In this document: piece after piece, positions 562 through 48,268 of the stretch
Position numbering within the stretch: the stretch's first letter is position 1
Layout of the letters: each line of letters begins with the position of its first letter
Source of the DNA: a virus
Lineage: Duplodnaviria > Heunggongvirae > Uroviricota > Caudoviricetes
Direction: 5' to 3' (one strand)
DNA: 64,000 nucleotides
IMG/VR virus record: IMGVR_UViG_3300010998_001290
Made by a program: the position numbers and the translations under genes
The notes under the pieces: model-generated
The model's database searches: none
What the model was told of the DNA's origin: nothing
The model's input: the letters and a program-made list of their open reading frames with translations, nothing else

Positions 562-605
562 ACTTAAGGTGTTGAAGTTCGTATTATCGAAAGGATGTGT
601 ATATA

Positions 606-1541
606 GTGATTGTCGTAAAAGGAAATGTTGAATACATAGGAGCAGATGATGTAAAGCTCGGCGTTATTACTTTCCCAGAATGGGCAGAATATATTAGAGA
701 TGGCTGTACATTTGCCTTGACTCCGGCAGAAATGCACGAGGTCAAGTTGATAGATTTTGGCTCTGTTAAGTATATCGGTTCAAGATTCTATAACAAAAAC
801 CATCTGATGATAGGCGGCATGGATGCGCTGGAGAGAATATCGTTCTGCGAGATATTTGACAATCTCGAACGAGTTAATGCACCTGAGCTTGTGGAAATCA
901 ACGAAAATCAGTTTAAGGCGTGCAAAATGCTTGAAAGTGTGTCTATCCCAAAGGCACAGGTGATAGGACCTTGCGCTTTTGCATTATGCCCCAAGCTTAA
1001 GAATGTGACCTTTGGTAATATCCAAAGAATAATGTCAAGCGCATTTGACTCTTGCAGGTCACTCAAAACGATTGAACTTCCGGAAGACAGCGAGGTTATT
1101 ATCCAAACGCAAGCATTCGCAAGAACGGGTCTTGAAAAGGTTGATCTACATTCCTGTTCTCTGAGATCATCAGCATTTTTTGCTTGCAGTGACTTAAAAG
1201 AAGTCAAAATAGATGATTTATCTCGTGTTCCCGGAAATTCCTTTTCCTATTGCAATAATCTCAGCAGTATAACCTTACTCACGGCACCGAGAGAGTATAA
1301 CCTGCCGTACACAGGCGAATGCTGCGAATATGAGCTGCGGATTAGCGAAGATGCGTATATACTTCCGAGTGAACCTATGAAAACGGTATGTTACAACGGC
1401 ACGACGGGAGAATATGTACAGACAATACAGTTGTATAATAAAAAGGTATATGTGATGAAGGATGGCAGGTATGTAATGTCCGAACTCGGAGAAGCCTTTG
1501 AAATAAGCTTTGAACAGCTTAAAACGGAGCTCGGAGAGTAA
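606..1541 (+). CDS. BspA-type leucine-rich-repeat (LRR_5-like) protein, paralogue 1 (alternative GTG start 597)
   Basis: Repeated 'AF..C..L..V.LP' units. Conserved N-terminus (IVVKGNVEYIGADDV) and C-terminus (YVMKDGRYV). AAAGG RBS 10 nt upstream of GTG 606. Confidence 0.7.
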   Translation: MIVVKGNVEYIGADDVKLGVITFPEWAEYIRDGCTFALTPAEMHEVKLIDFGSVKYIGSRFYNKNHLMIGGMDALERISFCEIFDNLERVNAPELVEINENQFKACKMLESVSIPKAQVIGPCAFALCPKLKNVTFGNIQRIMSSAFDSCRSLKTIELPEDSEVIIQTQAFARTGLEKVDLHSCSLRSSAFFACSDLKEVKIDDLSRVPGNSFSYCNNLSSITLLTAPREYNLPYTGECCEYELRISEDAYILPSEPMKTVCYNGTTGEYVQTIQLYNKKVYVMKDGRYVMSELGEAFEISFEQLKTELGE

Positions 1542-1583
1542 TCATTCTCTTGATACCAACGAAAAATCAACACTTAAGCGGAA

Positions 1584-1611
1584 GGGGCACTCGGTTGCCC
1601 CTTTTGTTTTT
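1584..1611 (+). terminator. intrinsic terminator
   Basis: GGGGCAC-tcgg-TTGCCCC hairpin plus TTTTGTTTTT. Confidence 0.7.
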
Positions 1612-1624
1612 ATGCCCGAAATAG

Positions 1625-1660
1625 CATACTAATAATAGTATCATATCAAGATGAATGGAG
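1625..1660 (+). promoter_or_regulatory. promoter cassette: CATACTA plus GATGAATGGAG box
   Basis: Sits 14 nt after the terminator at 1584-1611, spacing 18 nt. Confidence 0.6.
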
Positions 1661-1713
1661 GTTCAGAGTGGTATTTAGTCAAAATATGAATAATATAGAA
1701 AGGTGTGTATGAA

Positions 1714-2907
1714 ATGATAATAGAAAATGGCGTTGTTATAAAAATCACAGATGCTGATGTAGCGTTTGATATGCAGCGCGAAGGATATGGAGTACTGAAC
1801 CTTCCTGATGAAGCGACAGTACTTAAGGCTGACGTTACCGGTATCTCACCGTCAATGAGGTCAAACATAAAGGAACTCAGAGGGAAAAACATTCAGTATA
1901 TAGAGGCTTTTACAGATCATTGCGGAGAAAAGTCGTCTTTGACGCCCACTTTTCCCGCTCTGGAGCTTTTCGATATGCCGAGCCTTAAAGAGATCCCAAA
2001 GGAGGCTTTTGTTCAGCATAATATGCTTAAAAAAGTAGACCTCCCAAGCGTTAAATATGTCAGGGAGATGGCTTTTGAGGATAGCAGTATCGAAACTGTC
2101 ATATTGCCTGAAGCAGTGACAATATACGAGTCTGCTTTTAACTTTTCGGATATCAGCTCTATATATGCAGATAAGGTCGAAATCATTGAAGAGCGGGCAT
2201 TTGACGAATGTAAGAAATTGGATAAGCTTCATATGCTTAATGTTCGGCTGATAGGGAAATACGCATTTCAGAATTGCAACAAACTTAGGCTTATATATTT
2301 CGCCAAAGTGACGAACATAGACGATGCTGCTTTTATGGGGTGTAAATCTCTTGAAGAAGCGAATCTTCCCTCTGTACAGTCCATTGGTGAATACGCTTTT
2401 TCTAACTGTAAAAAGTTGAGCAGGGTGCATTTAGGCGATGACCTTAAAGCTATTCAGTACATGGCATTTTACTCCTGCGCAATAACAAATCTAAAAATCG
2501 GAAAAGCTGCCATTGTAGAAGCAGAAGCTTTTGAAAACATACAGAAGGACGTGGATGTTTATTGCGATGTTCCGGAGCAAATCGATGGAGCATTCGGATT
2601 TTTCCCCAACGGGAGAAAGGTCAAAAATGTATATTTCGCGAAGAAATATACCGAAAGGCAAAAGCTTCCTTTCTTGACAAGTAACGAATGCAGTTATCTT
2701 GTATTTCCGAATAAGAGAATGAGAGCCCTTTCAGTGAATACTTCACAGGTCTTTGAGGTGGAGCAGGAGATTTCCTGTATAGACGGAAAAACCTTGTGGA
2801 TACTGCGTAACGGCTGTTATGCTGTTAAGGAGACATACGGCAAGGTGATAAAGTATTGTTCAGGCAAAGAAGAGCTTGAAAAGGCTTTGAATGCTCCGCC
2901 GTTTTGA
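1714..2907 (+). CDS. BspA-type LRR protein, paralogue 2
   Basis: 'MIIENGVVIKITDADV' N-terminus, many 'AF..C..L' repeats, C-terminal 'LWILRNGCYAV'. RBS AAAGG. Confidence 0.7.
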   Translation: MIIENGVVIKITDADVAFDMQREGYGVLNLPDEATVLKADVTGISPSMRSNIKELRGKNIQYIEAFTDHCGEKSSLTPTFPALELFDMPSLKEIPKEAFVQHNMLKKVDLPSVKYVREMAFEDSSIETVILPEAVTIYESAFNFSDISSIYADKVEIIEERAFDECKKLDKLHMLNVRLIGKYAFQNCNKLRLIYFAKVTNIDDAAFMGCKSLEEANLPSVQSIGEYAFSNCKKLSRVHLGDDLKAIQYMAFYSCAITNLKIGKAAIVEAEAFENIQKDVDVYCDVPEQIDGAFGFFPNGRKVKNVYFAKKYTERQKLPFLTSNECSYLVFPNKRMRALSVNTSQVFEVEQEISCIDGKTLWILRNGCYAVKETYGKVIKYCSGKEELEKALNAPPF

Positions 2908-2918
2908 TGGAGGTTAAT

Positions 2919-3833
2919 ATGATAATATACAATGGTTTAGTAAAAAGGATAGAAGCTCATGATTTCGTGGACAAAGAGATACGATTTCCGGACGAAGCTC
3001 GTCGTATATGCGAAGATGTTCAGATAAGCTTTGAAGTCCAGCTTTTATTTGAAACTGTAGAATACATTGATTTCAACAATATTGAGGGCATTGACAGGAA
3101 AATTGTTCTCAATAAGGTAAAGAAGATCGATGCACCTCAGCTTTATATTGTGTGGGAAGACCAATTCTCGTACTGTGAGAAGCTTATGGAAATCAATATT
3201 CCGAGAGTAGAAACGATCAAAAGGAGAGGGTTCTTTAACTGTCGCGCTTTAGAGAGCATCACGCTGTCTAATATAGCGAGGATTGATGAAGAAGCTTTCT
3301 ATTGCTGTGTTGCTCTTACAAAAGCAGAGCTTGGAGACAACATTAAGTTTGTTGGCACAAATGCTTTCAGAAATACGAATTTATCGTATATAGATCTGAA
3401 ACAGGCTGAAGAAGTAAGAACCGGTGCGTTTAAGAACTGTACTCATCTATTCCAAATCAGGGTAGCAAACCTGAATGTGCTGAAGAGTAAGGCTAATGTT
3501 CTTGAAGGATGTGAAGACCTCAGATGTATAACCTTAACTCAGGGCTCTGTCTCAGCTAAGAAGTATCCTTATACCAAAATAGGCTGTGAATACACCATTG
3601 AGAGCATAAAGGGAAACGAGCACATCAGGCTGCTATCGGGCAACAGTGCTGCCGACGTGTATCACATAAGCCAAAAGATAAGCGGGGAAAGCTTTGATGA
3701 TGAGGAATTTATGAGCGATATTTATGTTACGGACGGCGGTGATATGGTGGCTGTTAAGAAAAGTAAGACAACTGGATTTAAATATGTTTGTCGAGGAGAC
3801 ACTGCAAAAATCAGGCAGTTTTTAGAAGCGTAG
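2919..3833 (+). CDS. BspA-type LRR protein, paralogue 3
   Basis: GGAGG RBS 5 nt upstream. 'MIIYNGLVKRIEAHDF' N-terminus and LRR repeats. Confidence 0.7.
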   Translation: MIIYNGLVKRIEAHDFVDKEIRFPDEARRICEDVQISFEVQLLFETVEYIDFNNIEGIDRKIVLNKVKKIDAPQLYIVWEDQFSYCEKLMEINIPRVETIKRRGFFNCRALESITLSNIARIDEEAFYCCVALTKAELGDNIKFVGTNAFRNTNLSYIDLKQAEEVRTGAFKNCTHLFQIRVANLNVLKSKANVLEGCEDLRCITLTQGSVSAKKYPYTKIGCEYTIESIKGNEHIRLLSGNSAADVYHISQKISGESFDDEEFMSDIYVTDGGDMVAVKKSKTTGFKYVCRGDTAKIRQFLEA

Positions 3834-3842
3834 GAGGAATAT

Positions 3843-4784
3843 ATGGTCATAGATAACGGATGTGTAATCGATATAGATAAGACTGATATTATCGAAGGAG
3901 TCCTTACATTCCCAGCTGGAGCAAAGATGCTTGGGTCAAAATCTCAAATATTAGAAGTTTGCAACGAACGGGGCGAATTAACGCGATATTTGGACGGGAA
4001 AAAGTATATTTGTCGGAATTTGCAGGAAGAAAATACTGTAAAAAGATTTACCCCGTTTTTACCTGAGATAAAAGAAATAAATTTTTCTGGCATAGAGAAT
4101 ATAGCGCTCCCAATAGCGCGAATTGCTCCACGGATTCAAACAGTGCATGGAGAAAACATATTATCTATATGCGATTGTTGTTTTGAAGATTGTGAAAAAT
4201 TAAAGGCTATAGATCTTTCAAATGCAAATACGATAGGGAAATACGCTTTTGCTGGTGCAGGGCTTGAAATAGTACTTTTTGGAACATCGATAAAAAATAT
4301 AGACTTTGGTGCATTTTCTTATACAATGCTTGAATCCGTAAATATTCAAAACGCTAAAATAGCTACTCATGCATTTCGGGGCTGCGATTGCCTTCAAACG
4401 GTTTACATGAATTCAACAGATTTATGCGAAACTTGGTCTTTTTATCAATGTGAGGCAATAAATGAAATATATGTAAAAGAATACAATGTTTCGAATATAC
4501 CATATATAGATTCGGGGTATGAGTACAGCATATGTGAATGTAACGGGAATGGAACAATGCATAACATCATATGTGGAGACGATGAGGTCAGTGAAGAGAT
4601 AGTGTATGAATATGTTCAAAAAATGAAATGTCAGGGGGTTGACGGCAACTTATACATTTTGAAGGATGGAAGAATTATTCATATTTACCAGTATGAGACT
4701 TATGACGGAATTGAAAATAAGGTAAGTCCTGAGTTCAGCAGCATAGATGAGTTTAAAGATTATATGGATATGGAGGGAAGTTAA
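3843..4784 (+). CDS. BspA-type LRR protein, paralogue 4
   Basis: GGAGG RBS. 'MVIDNGCVIDIDKTDI' N-terminus, LRR repeats, C-terminal 'LYILKDGRIIHIY'. Confidence 0.7.
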   Translation: MVIDNGCVIDIDKTDIIEGVLTFPAGAKMLGSKSQILEVCNERGELTRYLDGKKYICRNLQEENTVKRFTPFLPEIKEINFSGIENIALPIARIAPRIQTVHGENILSICDCCFEDCEKLKAIDLSNANTIGKYAFAGAGLEIVLFGTSIKNIDFGAFSYTMLESVNIQNAKIATHAFRGCDCLQTVYMNSTDLCETWSFYQCEAINEIYVKEYNVSNIPYIDSGYEYSICECNGNGTMHNIICGDDEVSEEIVYEYVQKMKCQGVDGNLYILKDGRIIHIYQYETYDGIENKVSPEFSSIDEFKDYMDMEGS

Positions 4785-5731
4785 TGATTCTTTCAGGAAA
4801 AGTTTTGTACGGAATAAACGAAGATGATGTAAATGTGAAGGAAAAGACCCTTCGTATTGGCAACGGCGTTAAAGAGATGTCGGATAGGTGTAATGTCAAT
4901 ATAAGAAAAGAAATCAGGGAACAGATAAAAACCATTGACTTTAATGAACTTGTAGCAGTAGATCATTTGAGTGGATGTACTGTTCACGATGTTTTCCCGA
5001 ACGTAGAAGTCGTACTGATGCCTAAAGCAAAGACGGTATATGCTAATATGTTTGAGAAGTGTCAAAAGCTCAAGAAAGTAGACATGAAAAACGTAGAAAG
5101 AGTACACGAAGCGGCGTTTAAGGGCTGTACCAAACTACAACAAGTTCTTCTTCCTAACGTCATATTTATTGGGAAGGAAGCTTTTGCCGGTTGCGAACGA
5201 CTTGAAACTATCTCCTTAAGGAAAGAGAGAAAGGTAATCCAATACTTTGCGTTCAGCGAAACAGCTGTTGAGACTATCGATCTTGGAGATGCAAAAGTTG
5301 ATCTTGGCGCGTTTAAATGGTGTGGATATTTGCAATCGTTAAGTATAGACACTTTACGGGATTTCGACAGAAGAGCATTAGCAGAGTGTTATGCCTTCAA
5401 AGAGATTTTGGTCAGGGACAAGGAATATGCCTATATAGAAAAGGCACCATGTATAGCAAGAGGTAAGACGTATTCCCTTGTGTATGACGATGAAGAGTCT
5501 CCATTTGCGCCAGATGAAAAACATATGATATGTGGAGTCGAGAAATATGATCATGATCGCGTTTATCCCGTGTTTGAGTACATACAAGCAATAGATACAA
5601 AGTCTGTTAATTCCGGTACATTTTCCAGATTGTACGTTCTGAAAAACGGGAAATATATTGCAGTGTTCACAAACGGAAAGATAAGTCTTGTAAGCGATTC
5701 CGTATCATCGCTCGTTGAAGCAAAAGACTAA
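4784..5731 (+). CDS. BspA-type LRR protein, paralogue 5
   Basis: TAATG overlap with the previous gene. GGAGGG RBS. LRR repeats and C-terminal 'LYVLKNGKYIAVF'. Confidence 0.7.
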   Translation: MILSGKVLYGINEDDVNVKEKTLRIGNGVKEMSDRCNVNIRKEIREQIKTIDFNELVAVDHLSGCTVHDVFPNVEVVLMPKAKTVYANMFEKCQKLKKVDMKNVERVHEAAFKGCTKLQQVLLPNVIFIGKEAFAGCERLETISLRKERKVIQYFAFSETAVETIDLGDAKVDLGAFKWCGYLQSLSIDTLRDFDRRALAECYAFKEILVRDKEYAYIEKAPCIARGKTYSLVYDDEESPFAPDEKHMICGVEKYDHDRVYPVFEYIQAIDTKSVNSGTFSRLYVLKNGKYIAVFTNGKISLVSDSVSSLVEAKD

Positions 5732-5786: not shown

Positions 5787-5836
5787 TGTGTACGAAAGAC
5801 AATAGTTTTTCTTTTTCCTTCTGCTTAATCATACTA
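5787..5836 (+). promoter_or_regulatory. promoter cassette: TGTGTACGAAAGACAATAGTTT upstream box, 21 nt, CATACTAATAGT
   Basis: Motif shared with four other sites. Follows the terminator at 5746-5780. Confidence 0.6.
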
Positions 5837-12176: not shown

Positions 12177-13634
12177 ATGGTTAATTCAAGAAAGTCGGTT
12201 TTTACGAAAGCCGCAGCGATAGCAATGTCTATCACAATGCTTACATCAGCGTTATCGTTTGGTGTTAACGCATCAGCAGCAGACCTCGAAAGTACAGCAA
12301 CAGTTGCATCATCCGGACCTGTAGTATCGTGTCCGATTGAAGATGGTGTTCTTTACATAACTATCGAGGGCGGTCAGTGGAAACACTGGATTGAGTACGC
12401 CTCCGGCGAAGCAACATCGGGATACGGCACGCTTGATATCAAGACAATCAACGGAGTTGAAACATTCATTTATTCGGATACTGACGGAAATGTAATTCTT
12501 CAGTGGGATGAAGAGGCTCCCTCTAATTCCGGCGGCAGAGGCGATATCACTGATGGCGAAGAAGAGGAGAACGAAGAGGAGACCGGTGCGGTTGACCTCA
12601 AAATCGCGGAAAAGCTTCTGAATATGCTTTATGCAGAACAGAGTGCGTTGAGCGAGGAAGCGGGCTACTTCAACGATATGTACAAGGAACTGAAGTCGTC
12701 AATATCTGAAGCTACAACGATAAAATCAGTTCTGAGAAACACGATGTCCAACGATGAACTGGCTGACATCACAGAGTATATCAAAGCCGCTAATAAGCAG
12801 AAGACATATGCTTATAATCAGTATAAGCGTTTCAATTCTGCTGCTACAAGATGCGGGAATGAGATAAGACTTATCGAAAAACGTCTCGGCAAGAGTAATT
12901 CCGTAGTAGATGTATCCGGTGGAGAAGGCACTTCGTCTAAGAGCGCAGGCACAGGCGGTCTGTCCTTCTGGAAGAGCAGTGCTTATCAGAACGCGGCATC
13001 TAACGGCTATGGTGATGCAACAGATAAGATCGTTACATTCTCCGATGACGAAAAACTGTTCCTTAAGGCGATAAACGAGTATAAGCAGAGTTATTCCACT
13101 AAGGTTTATGCTGTAATTACAGTAAGAAGCAAGACGGAGACTTACTACCTTAAGTATTTCCCCAAGGATAAGGCTGTGTACAGAGTAACTGTAAAGGGCA
13201 CGAAGCTCAGTAATACGCCTGAATACAGTTCGGCGGATATAGCGAAGGGACTGCTCAAGAATTATAAGTTCGCTTATGATAAGCTGAAACAGATCCTTAA
13301 CTATGATTACGCGGTATATACGGCTGCTACCTCTTTCTATGAAGAAAAGGGCAAGCTGTTAAACGAGAAGTATAACGCCATAAAGGACTATAAGACGGAA
13401 CACAAAAAGGATTTTTCTGTAGCTGAACGCGAAACTGTTGATGCAATCATCAACACGTTGGGAGGCAGCGGCACACATCATTATAGGGTTATGGCTGTAA
13501 AGACCGGTAAGATATACCAATCTGGTCCCATAAGCCTTTACAAGTATGCTGCGAAGGAAGTTGAAAAGACAGCGAAATCTATGGGTGTAACGCTTACGTC
13601 TACCGCGACCTCTGGCGATACAGCTAACGGATAA
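12177..13634 (+). CDS. secreted protein, paralogue family member A
   Basis: Sec signal peptide 'AAAIAMSITMLTSALSFGVNASA'. Paralogous to 14328..15920. AAAGGAGG RBS. Confidence 0.75.
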   Translation: MVNSRKSVFTKAAAIAMSITMLTSALSFGVNASAADLESTATVASSGPVVSCPIEDGVLYITIEGGQWKHWIEYASGEATSGYGTLDIKTINGVETFIYSDTDGNVILQWDEEAPSNSGGRGDITDGEEEENEEETGAVDLKIAEKLLNMLYAEQSALSEEAGYFNDMYKELKSSISEATTIKSVLRNTMSNDELADITEYIKAANKQKTYAYNQYKRFNSAATRCGNEIRLIEKRLGKSNSVVDVSGGEGTSSKSAGTGGLSFWKSSAYQNAASNGYGDATDKIVTFSDDEKLFLKAINEYKQSYSTKVYAVITVRSKTETYYLKYFPKDKAVYRVTVKGTKLSNTPEYSSADIAKGLLKNYKFAYDKLKQILNYDYAVYTAATSFYEEKGKLLNEKYNAIKDYKTEHKKDFSVAERETVDAIINTLGGSGTHHYRVMAVKTGKIYQSGPISLYKYAAKEVEKTAKSMGVTLTSTATSGDTANG

Positions 13635-14327: not shown

Positions 14328-15920
14328 ATGGTTACTTCAAAGAAAAACGCGATGATAAGAGCGGCGGCTATAGCTATGTCTTTGACGATGCTTACATCTG
14401 CTTTATCTGTCGGAGCAAGCGCGGCAACTATCTATTCAAGTGGTTCTGCTTCAAGTTCAAACAACGAATCAAGAGACAATGATATTGGACCTGCAATCAT
14501 TGCTTTCCCGTTAGCGGAAGGTGTTCTCCATATCACTACGGGGAATTCGACAGGTTCTTGGACGCAGCATTGGATAGAAGCTTATCCGGAAGGGGCTATG
14601 TCGGCAGACGAGCTTTATGTCCTCACACAAGTGGAAGGCAATAAGGGTATTGATTATGCGCTTACCGATCCTTCGGGCAATATCGTTCAGCAATGGACGG
14701 AAGAGTATTCCTATCCTACAGGGGGCGTACTCGAAGCAGAGGCGATAGAACTTACTGAAGAGGAAGCCGAAAGGATTACAAGTTCCTTAAGGAAAGACTA
14801 TGCAGCGGCCGGAGAGATCGATAACGAGCTCGGTTATCAGCTTCTCGATGCTCTTTACGAGGAACAGACGGTATTGACAAAAGCTGTAAACTTCTATAAG
14901 GAGTTATCAACCTCGCGCAGGGAATCGGCAAAGGGCGCGGCTAATGTCAAGGTAAAGCTTTCAGCGGCGCTTTCCAGTGCTCAGAAGAACGACCTTACAG
15001 ATTACATCAACAATTGTAATAAGGAAGCGTCATACTTCACGAGACGGGCAACCACGCTTAATAGTATGCTTTCTCAGACAAAAACGGAGATAAAGAGACT
15101 TACAAAGGCTCTGGGCAACATCTCTAAGAAATATGGCTCCGGTGACGAAAAAGAGTATTTTATTCCGGTGTATGGCGGCTTAAGTGAGAATATAGACACT
15201 TCTACAACAAGAATGAGCAACGATGGCTACTTCGCATTCTGGAACAGCTATCATATAGGTAATGCTCTCGGAGTTGACACAAGCTCAGGAATGTATCTCG
15301 TTATAGGCAAGCCGATAGTAGGTATTTCGGGGGATATGGCACTTCTCTTAGCACTTTGCAACAATCCCGGCAAGCCTTATGACCTTACGAACTCAAAAGG
15401 TGAGACTGTTTATGTTGCTTACATAGGCGGCAAGGTCTATAATGTGGACGCAAAGGGCAAAAAGCTCAGCAAGAAGGAAGCATTTGACATCAGCGATACC
15501 GTTAAGCATATCGTAGGTCGTTATTCCTTAAGCAGCAGCGAGGCAGCTCTTAACGCTTCACTTGAGGAAAAGCTGGTCTATGAGACGGCGGCGGACTTCT
15601 ATAAGACAAAATCCGAAGAAATCAAGGAAATTGTATCTCTTCTGAAGAAGTATAAGAACGATAATTCCAAGACATTATCTTCTACCGACAAATCTAAGCT
15701 TACAGCTTATATTAACGCTTATAACAGCTCAGCAACCTACTTCACGAGAAGAAAGAACTCGTACACAAGTATGTCGAAGACGGCGAATACTGAGGCAAAG
15801 AGACTTTCTAAGCTTCTTGAGGTAACAGGCGACAGTTCCGGCAAGACAGGCGACTTCGGCTTCTGGAAGACGGCTCTTACAGAGGGAAGATTCGTTCCGA
15901 CATATATGTACGCTTCGTAA
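14328..15920 (+). CDS. secreted protein, paralogue family member B, with an internal duplication
   Basis: Signal peptide almost identical to 12177's. Internal repeats 'YINNCNKEASYFTRR' and 'YINAYNSSATYFTRR'. GAAGGAGGAG RBS. Confidence 0.75.
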   Translation: MVTSKKNAMIRAAAIAMSLTMLTSALSVGASAATIYSSGSASSSNNESRDNDIGPAIIAFPLAEGVLHITTGNSTGSWTQHWIEAYPEGAMSADELYVLTQVEGNKGIDYALTDPSGNIVQQWTEEYSYPTGGVLEAEAIELTEEEAERITSSLRKDYAAAGEIDNELGYQLLDALYEEQTVLTKAVNFYKELSTSRRESAKGAANVKVKLSAALSSAQKNDLTDYINNCNKEASYFTRRATTLNSMLSQTKTEIKRLTKALGNISKKYGSGDEKEYFIPVYGGLSENIDTSTTRMSNDGYFAFWNSYHIGNALGVDTSSGMYLVIGKPIVGISGDMALLLALCNNPGKPYDLTNSKGETVYVAYIGGKVYNVDAKGKKLSKKEAFDISDTVKHIVGRYSLSSSEAALNASLEEKLVYETAADFYKTKSEEIKEIVSLLKKYKNDNSKTLSSTDKSKLTAYINAYNSSATYFTRRKNSYTSMSKTANTEAKRLSKLLEVTGDSSGKTGDFGFWKTALTEGRFVPTYMYAS

Positions 15921-15977: not shown

Positions 15978-16058
15978 TGTGTACGAAAGACATAAGTTTC
16001 CATTTTTACCTCTGAACTATCATACTATTATTAGAATCATTATCTGAGACGAACGGAG
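15978..16058 (+). promoter_or_regulatory. full tripartite cassette: TGTGTACGAAAGACATAAGTTT, 21 nt, CATACTA, 20 nt, GACGAACGGAG
   Basis: All three boxes present, after the terminator at 15946-15976. Confidence 0.6.
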
Positions 16059-16126: not shown

Positions 16127-16786
16127 ATGAACTACGAAATGCCTATACGCTTTTTTGACGCACAGGGCGGAAGAGTATTCTCGCTTATCGGAGAGATAAA
16201 CGAATCTGTGTACGAAAACAGGGCGAAAATCATCGACAAGAGGCTGTACGACATTCCGACTGTAAACGAAGGGGCTACAGCTAAACTCTCAAATGAACTT
16301 TCTGCAAAGGATAGGAGCTGGATAACAGAGCTTTTCACAGTAAAGTTCATTTATTGGGCAAAGAAGGGTATCCTTGGTGTAGCAGGAGCCGCTGCTGAGA
16401 TAGAAAATTTCAGCGTTCCTTCAAGCGCAGTCATCTTCCAGAACGGATACGACCGCGATTATGCGTGCGAGTCTTATCCTAAACTTCCGTTCTTTCAGGT
16501 TATGATCCAGAGGAACAGGGAGCTTTCGGTCGAAGATATACGTCGGATTGCCAACAGAACCGCCGATGAAAGCGAGGACTACGTCAACATCGTCGTGCGT
16601 GATACATATCTCTACGATTGTATCGAAAGCGAACTCGAAATTCCTGCTATCATCGCCGGAACAGAAGGCGAAAGCTTTGAAACTATCAGCATCAATGCTC
16701 TTAACAGCTTTGATAAGGTCAAGACCGTAGAAAAGATGGTCTATGACTACATCTATCGTGAGCAGTTAAGACGCGAGCTTAAGTAA
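16127..16786 (+). CDS. hypothetical protein
   Basis: AAAGGAAAG RBS region. Preceded by a full tripartite promoter cassette. Confidence 0.6.
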   Translation: MNYEMPIRFFDAQGGRVFSLIGEINESVYENRAKIIDKRLYDIPTVNEGATAKLSNELSAKDRSWITELFTVKFIYWAKKGILGVAGAAAEIENFSVPSSAVIFQNGYDRDYACESYPKLPFFQVMIQRNRELSVEDIRRIANRTADESEDYVNIVVRDTYLYDCIESELEIPAIIAGTEGESFETISINALNSFDKVKTVEKMVYDYIYREQLRRELK

Positions 16787-16796
16787 TGGGGGTTAT

Positions 16797-17456
16797 ATGA
16801 ACTGTAATAAGAAAATTGATAACGGGATAATAAAGCTTACACGCCCTGAGCTTCAGGAAAACGAGCGATATTGTCCCGCTTGTGATGGCTACGGCTATGT
16901 AATGAACGGATATGGGTGGTTTCAGCCTTGCCCTAAATGCGATTGGGGCAAAGTCTACTTATGCCCTCATGGAAATATGACAAGCAATGTCAATAACTGT
17001 TCCTGCTTCTTATGTGTCAAAGACCGTAACGAAAAAAGCTTTAAAAGCCAAATTAAGATCACAAAAGCCAGACCTCTCGAAGAAGTACCTGAAGATGAGA
17101 AGATAATGTTCTTCTCGGAATATATGGGTGAGTATGGCGACTATTTCAGTGACATTGAAGAGCTGGTCGATTACTGTTTGACCAACAGCAAGGATATTCC
17201 TGATTATGTGTGGCCGACGGTGAAGAGTACTATTGCAACTGAGCTTAACGCATATAGCATCATTGAGGAGGCGTGTGAAAACTTACACACAGATGCGATG
17301 GATTTCATATCCAATGATGATATTAAGGCTCTTGACACAAAGCTTCAGGAATGGGCAAGTGGTATAACCGGCACTGAAACCTATTATCAGCTCGATTATT
17401 ACCGCATAGATATAAAAGATGCGGTAAAAGAGATACTTGAGAGAAGAAAGGACTAA
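16797..17456 (+). CDS. hypothetical protein with a DnaJ-CR-like zinc finger (CxxCxGxG) and extra Cys clusters
   Basis: 'CPACDGYGYV...CPKCDWG...CPHG'. GGGGG RBS. Confidence 0.6.
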   Translation: MNCNKKIDNGIIKLTRPELQENERYCPACDGYGYVMNGYGWFQPCPKCDWGKVYLCPHGNMTSNVNNCSCFLCVKDRNEKSFKSQIKITKARPLEEVPEDEKIMFFSEYMGEYGDYFSDIEELVDYCLTNSKDIPDYVWPTVKSTIATELNAYSIIEEACENLHTDAMDFISNDDIKALDTKLQEWASGITGTETYYQLDYYRIDIKDAVKEILERRKD

Positions 17457-18200: not shown

Positions 18201-18737
18201 ATGAACAATGAAGTAACATACGCAAACAGAATGACAGTAGGTCAGCTTGCCGATGAGCTTAAGAAGCACAACCCGGAATTATATGTGGTTGTTTCCCAGA
18301 GTAAAGGAAGCTACACATTTTTACAGTCGATTTCGGTTGAGCACGACGACAACGAGGATATAAAGGACGTTCTCGCTCTCACGGCTAATCCTATGACCTT
18401 TGTTGACGGCAAGCCTGTCACAACAGGGGGAGTTAAGTACAAAATCGGCAAGGATGGCGCTCTCGTGTTAGGCAAGGAAGGCGAAGACTCCGAAAGCGAC
18501 GCTATAGCCGCTCGTATCAATGAGCTTGAGGACAATTATCTCGCTCAGGGAGCTGAGCTGGAAATCGATTGGGACGATGACCGTAAGGCGTGGATGGCGA
18601 TGAACTATTACAGTGCTATGGGTCAGGCTTCTCCTATCGAAGATAAAGACGGCAATCCCATAATCGCTTTCTCTGGGGTAAACCACAGCCTTGCTATCAA
18701 TGTTCTTGACAACTTCGAGATATACTATGTTTATTAA
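18201..18737 (+). CDS. hypothetical protein
   Basis: GGAAGGAG RBS. Confidence 0.6.
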   Translation: MNNEVTYANRMTVGQLADELKKHNPELYVVVSQSKGSYTFLQSISVEHDDNEDIKDVLALTANPMTFVDGKPVTTGGVKYKIGKDGALVLGKEGEDSESDAIAARINELEDNYLAQGAELEIDWDDDRKAWMAMNYYSAMGQASPIEDKDGNPIIAFSGVNHSLAINVLDNFEIYYVY

Positions 18738-18813
18738 AGATCATCTATGGTAATACCATATCAACTTCAAAGACCCCTTGTATAAGGGGTTTTTGTTTTT
18801 CTTGGGCAACAAT

Positions 18814-18820
18814 CATACTA
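18814..18820 (+). promoter_or_regulatory. CATACTAATAGT promoter element
   Basis: After the terminator at 18772-18800. Confidence 0.55.
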
Positions 18821-18866
18821 ATAGTAGCAGGGAAACCTGAAATCAACAAGAAGGAGGAAAACGGCA

Positions 18867-19004
18867 ATGGTTAAGTCCAATAAGGTCAAGGCAGCGCTCA
18901 TCGGCGGAGCTATTGTGCTTGTAGTTGCGGCGGCAGCTGTATTTGCAGGAACAATGGGCGTTGAGATGCCCAAGGCGGTGCTTGCCAGCATTTGTCCTAA
19001 GTAA
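18867..19004 (+). CDS. small hydrophobic (single-TM) peptide, 45 aa; not in the ORF track
   Basis: GAAGGAGGAAAA RBS 7 nt before ATG 18867. 'MVKSNKVKAALIGGAIVLVVAAAAVFAGTMGVEMPKAVLASICPK'. Sits between a promoter element and a terminator. Confidence 0.55.
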   Translation: MVKSNKVKAALIGGAIVLVVAAAAVFAGTMGVEMPKAVLASICPK

Positions 19005-19072
19005 ATTGCTCAATTTCAGAGTGATTGTTAACCCCTCCGAGCGAGGGGTTTTTGTTTTCTCTTCTAAACTGT

Positions 19073-19110
19073 CATACTATGTTTATGAGAATCGAATAAG
19101 ACGAATGGAG
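19073..19110 (+). promoter_or_regulatory. TGtCATACTA plus GACGAATGGAG cassette
   Basis: After the terminator at 19032-19058. Confidence 0.6.
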
Positions 19111-19153
19111 TTTTATTACGGTTCTTAATAATCAGAAAGGAAAGGTAATTGTT

Positions 19154-19468
19154 ATGATCAAAACAATTGACAATGTGAATGTCACCATCAATGGCGATGA
19201 TACCATGTCTGACGAGGAAGTAAAGGCTTACATCGACCGTGGTCGCGAGCAGAAGAAGCATATGAAGCTTCTCGAAATCGAGGTTACAGTAGACGGCGAT
19301 GAAGTTGACCTCAAGTACAGATATGAAGATCAGCCTTTTGAACGCATCCGCAGAATAACGGGTTATCTGGTCGGAACACTTGACCGCTTTAACAACGCAA
19401 AACGCGCTGAGGTCAACGACAGAGTAAAGCATACTATTCAGGATGACTGCGAGGACGTTTACATCTAA
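19154..19468 (+). CDS. hypothetical protein
   Basis: AAAGGAAAGG RBS. Preceded by a CATACTA plus GACGAATGGAG cassette. Confidence 0.6.
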   Translation: MIKTIDNVNVTINGDDTMSDEEVKAYIDRGREQKKHMKLLEIEVTVDGDEVDLKYRYEDQPFERIRRITGYLVGTLDRFNNAKRAEVNDRVKHTIQDDCEDVYI

Positions 19469-19504
19469 ACAGAAGAAGAAATACAGACGAATAAGGAACT
19501 GAAA

Positions 19505-19625
19505 GCGGCTTTCGGCATTGTTCCGGAGGCGTCGCCGCAATAGTGGCGGCAGGCGGTGACAGCGGCGAGTCGGCAGGCTGATCACTAAGGTTTTGAAAGT
19601 ACTGACAAAAAGAATCGTAAACAGA
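19505..19625 (+). repeat. GC-rich non-coding element, copy 2, with hairpin GCCGC-aatagtg-GCGGC
   Basis: No ORF in any frame. Aligns block-wise with 11032-11120. Directly precedes the terminator and dnaG. Confidence 0.5.
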
Positions 19626-19650
19626 CCCCTCTGCGGAGGGGTTTTGTTTT
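19626..19650 (+). terminator. intrinsic terminator immediately upstream of dnaG, with no promoter element between
   Basis: CCCCTC-tgcg-GAGGGG plus TTTTGTTTT. Confidence 0.65.
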
Positions 19651-19666
19651 AGGGGGAAGTGATAAT

Positions 19667-20659
19667 ATGAGTGAAGAGCTTTCTACACAGGGTTCGAATG
19701 CAAAGGAAATAACAAGACTTCTTGAAATGAATAGGGAAGCGGCAAGGTACTTCAGGGATACTCTTCTCTCTCCCAATGGAAGTGAAGGACTTGAGTATCT
19801 GAAGGAAAGGCAGCTAACTTCCGGCACTATAAGAAAGTACGGTCTTGGTTATGCTACCGATGAATGGCACGGTCTTCATTATTATCTTCGTAAAAAAGGC
19901 TACTCTGACTCCGAGATGGAGGAAGCCGCATTGGTTTCGAGAGGTAAAAAGGGTGTTTATGACAAGTTCAGACAACGAGTAATATTCCCTATAATTGACA
20001 GATGCGGCAATGTTGTTGCTTTTGGCGGCAGAGCTCTTGATAAAGAGGCTAAGGCAAAGTACATCAATAGCGATGAAACGCCTTTGTTTCATAAGAGAAT
20101 GAGCTTGTTTTCGCTGAATTTTGCCCAAAAGACAAAGAAAAGGTATCTTATACTGTGCGAAGGATATATGGATGTGATTTCTTTAAATCAGGCGGGCTAC
20201 GATAACGCCATAGCAACGCTTGGTACATCTATGACTTTGCAGCAGGCTGAAATTATGAAGCATTATGCTGAAGAAATCATTATTTCATACGATTCTGATG
20301 AAGCAGGACAAAACGCCACCAAAAAGGCAATCAGGCTTCTTAATGAGGTTGATTTACCTTCACGGGTGATAAAAGTCCCTAACGCAAAGGATCCTGATGA
20401 GTTTATCAAGGCGTATGGAGCTAAAAGCTTTGAGGAAGTGATAAACGCATCGATATCCTTGGTAAGCTTTGAGTTTGAGATACTTAAGAACAGTTTCGAT
20501 GTCAAGACAGCTAACGGAAAGGCAGAATTTCTGAAGGAAGCCATTGCTTTCCTTGCGAGTTATAGAGACAAGTATGATTGTTCAGCTTATATGTATGTGA
20601 TATCCGATATGACCGGGATCCCGTACAACGCAATCAATGAGCTTGTTGAAATGGCATAA
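19667..20659 (+). CDS. dnaG: DnaG-type DNA primase, TOPRIM core only; lacks the N-terminal zinc-binding and C-terminal helicase-binding domains
   Basis: 'FRQRVIFPIIDRCGNVVAFGGRAL...KYINSDETPLFHK', 'LILCEGYMDVISLNQAGYDNAIATLGTSMT', 'IISYDSDEAGQNATKKA' match the DnaG RNA-polymerase/TOPRIM region. AGGGGGAAG RBS. Confidence 0.8.
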   Translation: MSEELSTQGSNAKEITRLLEMNREAARYFRDTLLSPNGSEGLEYLKERQLTSGTIRKYGLGYATDEWHGLHYYLRKKGYSDSEMEEAALVSRGKKGVYDKFRQRVIFPIIDRCGNVVAFGGRALDKEAKAKYINSDETPLFHKRMSLFSLNFAQKTKKRYLILCEGYMDVISLNQAGYDNAIATLGTSMTLQQAEIMKHYAEEIIISYDSDEAGQNATKKAIRLLNEVDLPSRVIKVPNAKDPDEFIKAYGAKSFEEVINASISLVSFEFEILKNSFDVKTANGKAEFLKEAIAFLASYRDKYDCSAYMYVISDMTGIPYNAINELVEMA

Positions 20660-20731
20660 GAACCGGAATACAAACAACTCCTCTTAAGGTGATATACCTT
20701 AGGGGAGTTTTTGTTTTTCTTTCAGTTATAT

Positions 20732-20773
20732 CATACTAAAATATAGAATCATTATCTGAGACGAATGGAGTTT
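20732..20773 (+). promoter_or_regulatory. CATACTA plus GACGAATGGAG cassette; leader 29/30 identical to the 16032-16061 copy
   Basis: After the terminator at 20677-20718. Confidence 0.6.
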
Positions 20774-20813
20774 TGGAATGGTTTTATTATTATTTTGAAA
20801 GGAATGAGTAAGT

Positions 20814-20981
20814 ATGACGAAAGAAAATATTACAAAGGAGAAGTATAATACTTTTCTTGAGGCAGTCGATACCGTGTGTGGCGAATGTATCAGGTGTGGC
20901 GAAGAGACTTGCACGTTTTGCCCGGTCAGAGAGACTACTGACCATATAAACGAAACAGCAAAGGAAGCTGGTGTGAGATAA
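20814..20981 (+). CDS. small zinc-ribbon protein, 55 aa; not in the ORF track
   Basis: AAAGGA RBS 11 nt upstream. 'CGECIRCGEETCTFCPV'. TAATG-coupled to the next gene. Confidence 0.5.
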   Translation: MTKENITKEKYNTFLEAVDTVCGECIRCGEETCTFCPVRETTDHINETAKEAGVR

Positions 20982-21322
20982 TGGGCTGGAATGCCGGTTA
21001 TACCGTGATGGAAGCTCAAGTCATTGCTCTTTACGACAAGGGTGTTTTGACGGCTGAACTGCTTGATACAGTCATGGAGCCTTATAAGTACACCGATTGC
21101 GATGAAGGCGGCAGTAAAAATCTTAAAACAAAAGATGGGCTGCCTGTCGAGCTGGTAATCTGTAAGGTCATGAAACCTGACGAATATCAAAAGGCAATCG
21201 ATAACCCCGATTGGAAGGATTTACCTTACCAGTATGATAAATCATTAGACAATTGGGCTAACAACGAAAAGCTATGGGACTTGTACTGGTCCATATGGAA
21301 CGGTATGTGGGAAATCTGTTGA
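20981..21322 (+). CDS. hypothetical protein
   Basis: Translationally coupled ORF. Confidence 0.55.
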   Translation: MGWNAGYTVMEAQVIALYDKGVLTAELLDTVMEPYKYTDCDEGGSKNLKTKDGLPVELVICKVMKPDEYQKAIDNPDWKDLPYQYDKSLDNWANNEKLWDLYWSIWNGMWEIC

Positions 21323-25156: not shown

Positions 25157-25750
25157 GTGTATAAATCGTGGGTACAGACACCTATAGGATATGAATTATA
25201 TGCTCAAGGACAGTACGAACGTGAATTTCTGGCATTTATGTATGGAGGTGTGTACGACGGCTGGTTTTTCTATATCCCATACCATTCCGATAAAGAGATA
25301 CTCCTTAAGGCGGGTAGCCTTAAAGAAGCTAAACGGGAAGTAGAACAGCGGATGCAGAGAAATATCCTGAATGAAAGAAACAGATACGAACATTATATAA
25401 ACGAGACATCAAGCCGTTACGGGTGGCTTGAATACAACGACGACTCCTATGAATTAAAGGTTAAGTCCCCGGAGAAGGAAATGGTAACAGCCGCAAGGGT
25501 CGAAAAGGACGAATGGTACGGCTATAAGTACAGCACATTGTTCGAACCTTGCTTTACCCGTCATGTTCTGCTTTTACACACGGATGTTCAGAGATTGGCA
25601 ATTGACAGTATAAAGGAATACGGCGAGCGTCAAATAGATATATGCGAAATGCTTATCCTTATGCTCGAAGAAGAAGCTCCGGTAAAAAATATTGTGTACG
25701 AACAGCAAAAACACTGCCAAATAGGAAATAAAAAGTCATACTATGTATAA
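25157..25750 (+). CDS. hypothetical protein; start uncertain
   Basis: The GTG at 25157 sits only 1-2 nt after GGTGAGGG. No better in-frame start was found. Follows a CATACTA promoter. Confidence 0.45.
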   Translation: MYKSWVQTPIGYELYAQGQYEREFLAFMYGGVYDGWFFYIPYHSDKEILLKAGSLKEAKREVEQRMQRNILNERNRYEHYINETSSRYGWLEYNDDSYELKVKSPEKEMVTAARVEKDEWYGYKYSTLFEPCFTRHVLLLHTDVQRLAIDSIKEYGERQIDICEMLILMLEEEAPVKNIVYEQQKHCQIGNKKSYYV

Positions 25751-31123: not shown

Positions 31124-31173
31124 TGTGTACGAAAAACAATAGTTTGTGATTTTCCTCACCAAAAATCATACTA
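31124..31173 (+). promoter_or_regulatory. TGTGTACGAAAAACAATAGTTT upstream box, 21 nt, CATACTA, upstream of the flotillin gene
   Basis: After the terminator at 31081-31108. Confidence 0.6.
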
Positions 31174-33591: not shown

Positions 33592-33641
33592 CTGTGTACG
33601 AAAGACATAAGTTTCGAGTTTTCCGCTTAGGCAATCATACT
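33592..33641 (+). promoter_or_regulatory. TGTGTACGAAAGACATAAGTTT upstream box, 21 nt, CATACTA
   Basis: After the terminator at 33544-33580. Confidence 0.6.
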
Positions 33642-34232: not shown

Positions 34233-34460
34233 GTGAGAAAGATGATACCTGTGGGTACATACGTTCAGCTTAAGGAACCCGAAAACGGAAGGCGCTTTCC
34301 CGGAAAGGTAGCCAAAAATACCGATGAAGGGGTAAAAGTCGTGTTTCCTACGGGATATTATGTGATTTTCCCGGAAGAAAGATGGGAAATTTTAAAGAAA
34401 AGCACTGTAAAGGAGGGAGAAATCAATGAAGACGACGGATCCGAAGGAGAAGATGCTTAA
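34233..34460 (+). CDS. hypothetical small protein
   Basis: GGGGTGAGAAAG RBS. Confidence 0.5.
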   Translation: MRKMIPVGTYVQLKEPENGRRFPGKVAKNTDEGVKVVFPTGYYVIFPEERWEILKKSTVKEGEINEDDGSEGEDA

Positions 34461-35130
34461 TGAAATAGCTCGAACGAATGCAAATGGGGCTTTTATAGTT
34501 CCTGAAGGCATTGAGATCATAACAGGGGATGTTACCTATCCCTCTGACTTAAGGAAGCTTATACTCCCTGAAAGCGTAAAATCCGTTGAAAGGCTTGCTT
34601 TTCAAGGCTGTACCACACTTGAGTCTGTTGAAGGCGGGAACATCAGCAAGATAGGGGCTTATTCCTTCTCCGGCTGTACAAGTCTTAGCAGGTTTGATTT
34701 CGTACACAACTGTGAAATAGGAAACGGAGCGTTCTCGGAATGTGCCTTTACTAATCTGTCATTCGAGAATTGCAGGCTTCAGAGCAAGGCTTTTGAAAGC
34801 TGCAAAAGACTTAAGCGCGTCGTAATGGACGAAAGCACGACTGCCGAATACGATACATTCGATGAATGTACCGCGATAGAAAGCTTTATTTATTCAGGTA
34901 AAGAGTATGAAGCTTTTTGTATAAAAGGGACATGCCTTATAATAAAAGAGCGGTATATCGTTGACGGCATAGATGTTATCGAGGCGATGCACCCCGATGA
35001 TTTAAGCAATCCCACAACACGGATATTTGTCTGCTCAAAAGACGGTGTGTGGGAAAGCGACAACAATATTCGAGGCTGTATTCGTAAGCTTGAAAGGAAA
35101 ATAGGCATAAGCAGCCTCTACAGCGAGTAA
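34426..35130 (+). CDS. BspA-type LRR protein, seventh, dispersed paralogue
   Basis: AAGGAGGGAG RBS. 'LAFQGCTTLESV...AYSFSGCTSLSRF...GAFSECAFTNLSF' repeats. Confidence 0.65.
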   Translation: MKTTDPKEKMLNEIARTNANGAFIVPEGIEIITGDVTYPSDLRKLILPESVKSVERLAFQGCTTLESVEGGNISKIGAYSFSGCTSLSRFDFVHNCEIGNGAFSECAFTNLSFENCRLQSKAFESCKRLKRVVMDESTTAEYDTFDECTAIESFIYSGKEYEAFCIKGTCLIIKERYIVDGIDVIEAMHPDDLSNPTTRIFVCSKDGVWESDNNIRGCIRKLERKIGISSLYSE

Positions 35131-47591: not shown

Positions 47592-47602
47592 CAATGACAA
47601 GA

Positions 47603-47632
47603 AGGACGCTTCGGCGTCCTTTTTGTTTTTCT
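47603..47632 (+). terminator. intrinsic terminator (GGACGC-ttcg-GCGTCC family, repeated at 48191 and 43675)
   Basis: Perfect hairpin plus TTTTTGTTTTT. Confidence 0.75.
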
Positions 47633-47643
47633 TTCAGGTCTTT

Positions 47644-47678
47644 CATACTATATATGCGGTTCATTATGACGAATGGAG
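47644..47678 (+). promoter_or_regulatory. CATACTA plus GACGAATGGAG cassette
   Basis: After the terminator at 47603-47632. Confidence 0.6.
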
Positions 47679-48161: not shown

Positions 48162-48190
48162 TGCGAGCAAGCATATAATAGCTATTGAAA

Positions 48191-48221
48191 AGGGCGCTTC
48201 GGCGTCCTTTTTTGTTTTTCT
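48191..48221 (+). terminator. intrinsic terminator
   Basis: GGGCGC-ttcg-GCGTCC plus TTTTTTGTTTTT. Confidence 0.75.
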
Positions 48222-48232
48222 CTCCATTCAAT

Positions 48233-48268
48233 CATACTAACTATAGCATTATTTTCAGACGAATGGAG
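48233..48268 (+). promoter_or_regulatory. CATACTA plus GACGAATGGAG cassette
   Basis: After the terminator at 48191-48221. Confidence 0.6.

Follow-up and report, generated by a model that had tools for sequence, protein, structure and literature searches.

The DNA considered here is a stretch of 64,000 nucleotides from IMG/VR record IMGVR_UViG_3300010998_001290 (this whole 64-kb stretch is called the window below). It belongs to a large, uncharacterised mobile element of about 300 kb, recovered from metagenomes, whose host is probably a rumen Clostridia bacterium. All convincing genes of the window lie on the + strand, as do the features around the gene of interest, which occupies 19667..20659 and encodes a 330-aa primase of the DnaG type with an RNA-polymerase domain (RPD) only. 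We picture a transcription unit that would begin with a promoter/leader cassette, carry a short gene (ORF104), a group of GC-rich hairpins and a terminator, continue with the primase, and end at a further terminator (20681-20718). Beyond that point lie two more short genes, ORF55 and ORF113.

DnaG primases are three-domain enzymes, in which a zinc-binding domain (ZBD) selects the start site and a C-terminal domain docks on the helicase. The window protein has all three subdomains of the RPD, namely DNAG_N (PF08275, aa 28-153, E 6e-40; 19748-20125), the TOPRIM fold (Toprim_2, PF13155, aa 162-247, E 9e-27; 20144-20422) and the helical subdomain that closes the RPD (PF10410, aa 267-318, E 1e-5; 20465-20620). 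The original prediction, made from the letters alone, had described a primase reduced to its TOPRIM core, which is wrong, since the entire three-subdomain RPD is retained. The best matches among solved structures are crystal constructs that are themselves limited to the RPD (5guj of B. subtilis, E 8e-57 over aa 25-313; 4e2k of S. aureus; 1dd9 of E. coli). The NCBIfam model for dnaG, TIGR01391, is matched at profile positions 104-410 of 414 only, positions 1-103 being the CHC2 ZBD, and the score of 291.7 bits barely exceeds the cut-off of 283.6. No Pfam match to the ZBD (zf-CHC2, PF01807) was found in the primase, and neither Pfam nor the alignment revealed a C-terminal helicase (DnaB/DnaC)-binding domain (HBD). 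In an alignment with full-length relatives, the start of the protein falls within the linker that follows the ZBD and its end at the last helix of the helical subdomain; the relatives run about 150 residues further, with a PF00772-like domain there in P0002 and P0005. The prediction that the ORF starts at the RPD boundary and has lost both ZBD and HBD was thus confirmed by Pfam, PDB, TIGR01391 and the alignment, which all agree, and the ORF encodes a DnaG variant whose domain architecture is genuine and rare. It has the three subdomains and the invariant catalytic and groove residues of the bacterial enzymes, but differs from them in having neither CHC2 ZBD nor HBD, and in being carried by a mobile element instead of a dgt-dnaG-sigA operon.

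Nothing is missing from the RPD itself: the catalytic and template-groove residues that are invariant in the family are all in place. The motifs EGYMDV, YDSDEAG, KDPDE, KYINSDET, FGGR and RVIFPI are intact, and residues E165, D169, D209, D211, D242, D244, K131, Y132, N134, R122 and R104 are all present. When 167 full-length DnaGs were taken as reference, the 40 RPD positions with at least 93% conservation were all kept in the primase (40/40), a set that includes the TOPRIM Glu, DxD, DPD, KYxNSxET, FGGR and RVxFP.

The gene is also maintained by selection. An identical protein is present on two contigs of about 301 kb each, and an orthologue with 92% aa identity (P0001) was followed on 24 contigs from several independent studies, the longest of about 400 kb; its loci keep the order ORF104 - spacer - primase - ORF55 - ORF113, as well as the boundaries of the primase. 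Between the window and P0001 lineages, dN/dS is 0.076 at a dS of 0.55. The suggestion that the primase might be non-functional is refuted by this purifying selection, together with the 40 conserved positions. The GC content of the gene (41%) matches the element mean (42.5%), so that it appears to be a long-term resident. A ribosome-binding site (RBS), AGGGGGA (19651..19657), is read 9 nt before the ATG at 19667 and is conserved in loci L002-L009.

A ZBD left upstream in frame would have pointed to a local deletion or an assembly error. We looked for one by tblastn, with the ZBDs of E. coli and of a Geobacillus-like primase and those of the eight closest relatives as queries, and with a CxH...CxxC regular expression; only chance-level matches were obtained in the 198-nt spacer or the rest of the window. 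In tblastn, homology to the relatives begins at about 19685, within the linker, and stop codons interrupt each of the three frames of the spacer (19469-19666), in accordance with the non-coding stretch that had been predicted there. With no ZBD upstream and constant boundaries on the 24 P0001 contigs, neither a deletion nor an assembly error accounts for the architecture.

Such an architecture is rare. At E<=0.001, 34,772 proteins match the primase in a search of 1.84 billion cluster representatives, and only about five of the best 150 clusters are of RPD size: P0060 (317 aa), P0235 (338), P0263 (340), P0236 (365) and P0244 (299, possibly a fragment). P0028, P0032 and P0060, with 314-317 aa and 50-55% identity to the window primase, are RPD-only and come from loci L010/L011, in which the regulatory grammar of the window (described below) is also used: terminator, T-tail, CATACTA, then ...GAATGGAG. 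Because they have this grammar and the derived residues T64, G69, S82, K158 and K302 in common with the window primase, the RPD-only form seems to be old within one element family. The genes of P0235 and P0263, also RPD-only, are complete and stand in different contexts, likewise non-chromosomal. Upstream of P0235, two ORFs (L099:2-1530) resemble, by eye, the C-terminal RecA-fold part of DnaB-type helicases.

In the neighbour analysis, both element lineages have full-length DnaGs of Clostridia as their nearest neighbours, and identity to chromosomal Clostridia DnaGs ranges from 43 to 61%. The closest full-length relative, P0002 (61%), is chromosomal and lies in an Impact_N - dGTPase - dnaG - sigA operon, on a 53%-GC contig of the same metagenome sample (locus L105; JGI 3300011008, contig Ga0139362_1001362); its bacterium is a candidate host, or a relative of the host. 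Forms that combine ZBD and RPD without HBD (443-489 aa; P0015, P0019 and P0063) fall in the same clade, and such a form is also carried by pRUMAL01, a 420-kb plasmid of Ruminococcus albus 7. Judging from these sequence relationships, the primase stems from the clade of chromosomal DnaGs found in rumen Clostridia, and the loss of its two accessory domains took place at domain linkers, early in the history of this element family.

How would such a gene be expressed? Promoters of this element appear to follow a grammar of their own, in which a terminator hairpin is followed by its T-tail, TTTTTGTTTTT, by CATACTA at +23 to +25, counted from where the tail begins, and about 27 nt further by GACGAATGGAG. 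CATACTA occurs 30 times on the + strand of the window and 5 times on the - strand; ATCATACTA has 16 copies (15 on the + strand) for 0.67 expected, and GACGAATGGAG 14 copies for 1.3 expected. Among 22 + strand sites with a hairpin plus T-tail, 18 carry CATACTA, mostly at +23 to +25 and in two cases at +56/+62. Two of the remaining four have the motif at about +64/+66, as located by hand, one is intragenic, and one, which stands before the primase, has none. That the primase is preceded by a terminator lacking CATACTA had been predicted, and it is indeed the sole intergenic terminator of the window in this situation. Further examples of the cassette are found at 47600-47678 and 48188-48268, and at L011:1160-1250 in a related locus.

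This terminator (19623..19650, stem 19623-19644, T-tail 19642-19650), detected by the hairpin scan and the census, reads AGACCCCTC-tgcg-GAGGGGTTT followed by TTTTGTTTT: a GC-rich hairpin with a U-tract, placed between two co-oriented genes and followed by no promoter cassette. Its predicted dG of -13.7 kcal/mol is inside the range of the other terminators of the window, and it is identical in the L002-type lineage, where the spacer and the RBS are conserved too. Between it and the primase ATG there is no CATACTA, and a generic scan found no sigma-70-like site on the + strand between 19100 and 19666. The original statement that the gene has no promoter therefore holds within its own spacer, but not further upstream, where a complete cassette precedes ORF104 (19049..19110: T-tail, CATACTA at 19073-19079, GACGAATGGAG at 19100-19110). 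This cassette, identified by motif counts and T-tail spacing and kept in L002, lies 594 nt upstream of the primase ATG and is the sole promoter candidate of the unit that comprises ORF104 and the primase. It is opened by the T-tail, TTTTTGTTTT, of the intrinsic terminator (19030..19058; repeat family D10, terminator census) that closes the preceding unit (a 45-aa ORF). At the other end, a hairpin (20681-20705) and T-tail (20708-20718) form the intrinsic terminator that closes the primase unit (20681..20718), and the next cassette (20708..20770, with CATACTA at 20732-20738 and GACGAATGGAG at 20760-20770) would drive ORF55 and ORF113.

Since the terminator lacks a following cassette and the only candidate promoter is that at 19049-19110, the primase is probably expressed by read-through, a need which had been put forward earlier and which the terminator census and cassette spacing, that is, the element's own regulatory grammar, support. 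The gene would be transcribed at a low level from the cassette shared with ORF104, and the terminator at 19623-19650 would attenuate its transcription. A comparable layout exists in E. coli, where rpsU is followed by a Rho-independent terminator and then by dnaG, whose transcription comes from read-through (PMC13374519). What is alike in the rpsU - terminator - dnaG - rpoD arrangement is a promoter-less primase gene behind a Rho-independent terminator that follows a short gene; what is different is the upstream gene (here a glycyl-radical domain of the NrdD type) and the grammar of the promoters. The likeness is one of analogy, not homology. The promoter-less, terminator-preceded layout is real, but a familiar way of keeping primase levels low.

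Some details of the cassettes deserve mention. A TTG lies inside the T-tail, about 17 nt before TACTA(T/A), so that the tail of the terminator may double as a -35 element; one host homologue locus has, in place of the cassette, a promoter of ordinary type (TTGCAT-17-TATAAT). About 30 nt upstream of some CATACTA motifs a second box, TGTGTACGAAA(G/A)ACA, occurs in 5 copies for 0.19 expected (5787-5801, 15978-15992, 31124-31138, 33593-33607 and, with 2 mismatches, 25693-25707). It could be an operator or the mark of a distinct promoter class.

The spacer before the primase has another peculiarity, a GC-rich (66%, for an element mean of 42.5%) non-coding segment with three predicted hairpins (19505..19587), which is nearly invariant between lineages. 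It had been called a repeat element; however, no second copy exists in the window, and the resemblance of the spacer to other terminators is limited to its terminator part. The predicted folding of the spacer has a z of -2.6. A scan of 18700-21100 gave no Rfam family for the segment at E<=1, and the two substitutions that separate the lineages within it are at unpaired positions, which gives no evidence of covariation either way. The segment is part of a sharply delimited block (19083-19660) with an identity of 95-98% to the L002 lineage, flanked by DNA of 82-91% identity; the block extends from just past the promoter motif to the terminator, and the synonymous divergence of ORF104 within it is 0.16, compared with 0.5-1.1 next door. 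This suggests either cassette-wise recombination between element lineages or a constraint at the RNA level. The hairpins could act in cis as an RNA that sets the amount of read-through into the primase. When the 3' arm of the terminator was blocked in folding, the GC-rich segment formed no competing helix of the antiterminator kind. Two other origins of the segment were considered. A coding remnant of the ZBD was rejected, after the ZBD searches of the spacer and given the stops in all frames; a native 3' UTR carried along with ORF104 is unsupported, the one host homologue locus inspected (L102) having a plain terminator only.

We now come to the function of an RPD deprived of its neighbours. 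From work with engineered fragments, a zinc domain can serve the catalytic domain of a neighbouring subunit, and Corn et al. in 2005 and Qimron et al. in 2006 reportedly described such action of the ZBD in trans for DnaG and T7 primases. We propose that the window protein would be a functional, selection-maintained catalytic subunit of a DnaG-type primase, which, to judge from its conserved residues, would still make RNA primers, while template recognition and replisome recruitment would be supplied in trans. The RPD of B. subtilis alone forms no stable complex with ssDNA, ZBD plus RPD integrity being required for template binding (PMC5429622), and the ZBD on one primase serves the RPD of another in trans (PMC2978363). 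A partner in trans would be needed for these reasons, isolated RPDs binding ssDNA poorly and ZBDs serving the RPD of other subunits. It could be the ZBD of the host DnaG, at the host helicase, or an element protein encoded outside the window, and not ORF55; the host ZBD is plausible because the primase is itself of host-clade origin. A natural primase polypeptide devoid of its own ZBD is known in phage T7, the 56-kDa form of gene 4 (gp4B). It differs in being fused to a helicase and in forming mixed hexamers with the ZBD-bearing gp4A of the same gene, whereas the window primase has no helicase or ZBD attached or seen nearby. Among the alternatives left by the original prediction, a primase acting with a different partner is, we infer, the best reading. 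The overall picture, of a catalytic RPD subunit expressed by read-through and completed in trans for template recognition and recruitment, is in our view slightly better founded than its contrary.

Several points speak against this picture. No partner was found: a scan of roughly 75 proteins, which cover the 64-kb window and about 10 kb downstream out of some 300 kb, showed neither helicase nor polymerase nor ZBD protein. An untethered RPD without HBD would meet the host ZBD by diffusion, and an attenuated expression opposes the high concentrations that would help. Primase activity is deduced from the conservation of residues, and read-through from motifs; the terminator before the primase looks as strong as those that end other units. 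Finally, in L010/L011 the primase lies inside a tight operon with no upstream terminator, so that the attenuator would be specific to a lineage and not part of the core design.

Three other functional scenarios, and one of artefact, have to be weighed. In the first, the RPD works alone, as a primase or RNA polymerase of low specificity, independent of the helicase, that would for instance prime incoming or rolling-circle ssDNA. The intact catalytic core is compatible with this, and the neighbouring genes (orphan methylases, Lar, Ltp, ProQ-like, LPD28, RNase H, RecJ) resemble a set for entry and establishment. The accessory primase TtDnaG2 of Thermoanaerobacter tengcongensis, devoid of HBD, is active with a loose specificity (PMC5634424), and the 389-aa DnaG of R. 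albus plasmid pRUMAL01 is also HBD-less by annotation. Like P0015, P0019 and P0063, these are second DnaGs of Clostridia, encoded by elements or paralogues and without helicase coupling, but all of them keep the ZBD, which the window protein has lost too. Moreover, the failure of the isolated B. subtilis RPD to bind ssDNA stably (PMC5429622) argues against self-sufficiency, and no positive charge compensates for the loss: the net charge is -4 to +3 in the RPD-only proteins, for a mean of +2.9 in the RPDs of full-length enzymes. We consider this scenario unlikely.

A role outside priming, such as interference with or modulation of the host replisome, sequestration of nucleotides or alarmones, or an unrelated TOPRIM chemistry, would suit a neighbourhood rich in host-interaction genes. 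It has a precedent in MG_010 of M. genitalium (TIGR00646), a truncated DnaG paralogue whose dispensable function is unknown (PMC4446450), and a DnaG-like domain is also found in reverse-transcriptase proteins of defence (PADLOC, domain-level matches only). Neither reverse transcriptase nor defence partner is encoded nearby, however, PADLOC reporting no system context. MG_010, a 'DNA primase-related protein', and the archaeal DnaGs are likewise DnaG/TOPRIM cores without zinc finger or HBD, but the match of the window primase to the MG_010 model is weak (33 bits for a cut-off of 260), as are the matches to archaeal DnaG models; compared with them, the window primase is a recent and close derivative of a bona fide Clostridia DnaG. 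Above all, the residues for polymerisation and template binding are all conserved across deeply diverged RPD-only lineages, and a decoy or a binder would not need them. We tend to discard such a role as quite improbable.

The third scenario is that of a primase split over two genes, in which the zinc-binding module, detached as ORF55, would bind the RPD and restore template recognition. ORF55 (20814..20981, 55 aa) is a small cysteine-rich protein and a real gene, with a dN/dS of 0.08. It is the immediate next gene after the primase, not the second as had been stated. Its position, the purifying selection, the ability of ZBDs to act in trans and five invariant cysteines (C22, C25, C28, C33 and C36), which probably bind a metal, are in favour of the split. 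In L011, too, the ORF directly downstream of the RPD-only primase (L011:3640-3760) starts with an N-terminal CxxC-x11-CxxxC extension, which is not found, however, in its counterpart in the close relative L010 (2152). The ZBDs of primases (CHC2, T7) have two zinc knuckles (CxH/CxxC ... CxxC), 15-17 residues apart, or about 15-20 on a broader definition. The spacing in ORF55, CxxCxxCx4CxxC, is compact instead, within 15 residues, so that neither the 'C4 zinc ribbon' originally read in the sequence nor a pair of knuckles is present. No match was obtained in Pfam, PHROG or NCBIfam. The AF2 model, built from an alignment of three sequences (pLDDT 74.6), is a helix, a short hairpin and a helix and not the beta-sheet fold of a zinc ribbon, and Foldseek found nothing for it in the PDB at E<=0.001, in particular no primase ZBD. 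Homologues are confined to this lineage (2 clusters in 5.8 billion proteins), and none stands beside the other RPD-only primases (L010, L011 and the P0235 and P0263 loci).

The transcriptional layout points the same way. A terminator and a full promoter cassette intervene between the primase and ORF55, whose stop overlaps the start of ORF113 (20981..21322) in TAATG, which suggests translational coupling between these two. ORF113, with a dN/dS of 0.074, matches no protein family in Pfam or PHROG, and its single-sequence AF2 model (pLDDT 43.7) is unusable. The idea that ORF55 supplies a split ZBD is thus unsupported, in view of the lack of similarity in sequence and fold, the restriction to one lineage and the separate transcription unit. 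ORF55 is not demonstrably related to the primase, and the two-gene primase is very improbable.

The last scenario, a decaying fragment or an artefact of assembly or gene calling in which the ZBD was lost by local deletion or frameshift, draws on the existence in the database of chromosomal dnaG calls that are split by frameshifts (P0093, where a 109-aa ZBD ORF overlaps a 481-aa RPD-HBD ORF) or mis-started (P0057, P0071 and P0079, which begin inside the ZBD), but it is effectively refuted by the same boundaries on 24 contigs of different studies, the strong purifying selection, the lack of any ZBD coding remnant upstream in any frame, and a clean RBS and start codon kept between lineages. The database cases are observations in their own right. 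The P0093 gene (L097:2724-4446) is a chromosomal dnaG, in a dGTPase-dnaG-sigA operon, called as two ORFs that overlap by 53 nt; the ZBD product matches PF01807, and the RPD-plus-HBD product has 27 member sequences on 3 contigs of different studies. A frameshift error or programmed frameshifting could account for this, as could a primase that is truly split. P0057, P0071 and P0079 are DnaG calls of about 510-520 aa, on contigs of 52 to 478 kb, with a common start M[VI]SFI... located after the second cysteine pair of the ZBD, which may reflect a recurrent problem of gene calling or sequence, or else N termini that are really truncated.

The first cistron of the unit, ORF104 (19154..19468), is a stand-alone C-terminal domain of the NrdD glycyl-radical type. 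It scores 31.7 bits with PF13597 for a cut-off of 26.2, matches NCBIfam models of the NrdD C-terminus, evolves with a dN/dS of 0.076 and has the invariant motif FERIRRITGYLVGTLDRFNNAKRAEVxDRVKH. The family to which it belongs is large, with members of 90-146 aa encoded on chromosome-sized Clostridia contigs; in the one context inspected, the gene did not stand beside nrdD. According to a 2026 review, small 'spare-part' proteins are known for formate lyases and for no other glycyl-radical enzyme (PMC13450708); given that limit, ORF104 may represent a spare part of class III ribonucleotide reductase that has not been described yet.

The rest of the window is rich in ORFans. Its recognisable genes comprise BspA-type leucine-rich-repeat (LRR) paralogues, orphan DNA methylases, RNase H, RecJ, Lar, Ltp, a ProQ-C-like protein, LPD28, YopX, DUF4314, a DUF4942 methyltransferase, an ABC transporter and a flotillin. 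We recognised in it neither virion nor conjugation genes, and replisome genes neither there nor in the 10 kb downstream. PHROGs revealed no structural phage protein among the large ORFs, there is no tRNA gene in the window, and IMG/VR, GTDB genomes, INPHARED and PLSDB gave no relative at useful identity. The BspA-type paralogues form a tandem array of five (309-400 aa each) at 597-5731, with a sixth copy 29 kb away (34426-35130). Two large paralogous ORFs of 485 and 530 aa (12177-13634 and 14328-15920) have an N-terminal repeat in common (family D13); the L002 lineage lacks the 485-aa gene and carries an IS605-type TnpB (L002:3255-4373) on the opposite strand, slightly upstream of that position. 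Two adjacent ORFs encode 219-aa proteins (16127-16786 and 16797-17456), the second with a zinc-finger region of the DnaJ/anti-TRAP-like CxxCxGxG kind, at weak, sub-threshold scores; it is another cysteine-motif protein near the primase.

We know of no natural free-standing catalytic domain of a bacterial-type primase that has been characterised. The label 'DNA primase' that PGAP would give here, on a score just over the TIGR01391 cut-off, probably hides a protein unable to prime alone. The practical value of the finding is modest. Generalised to the family, the picture of a catalytic subunit completed in trans would describe a two-component DnaG-type primase, in which a free RPD is programmed by a separate specificity and recruitment factor, be it the host ZBD or a module of the element; we regard this extension as possible but doubtful. 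If the factor were the host ZBD at the host helicase, the element would hijack the host primosome. Should the two-component scheme hold, nature would have produced a case of ZBD/RPD action in trans, a mechanism demonstrated to date only for primases that were engineered or homo-oligomeric. The RPD-only primase offers in this respect a natural test case, both for trans-acting primase specificity and for the ways in which giant elements may plug into, or bypass, the primosome of their host.

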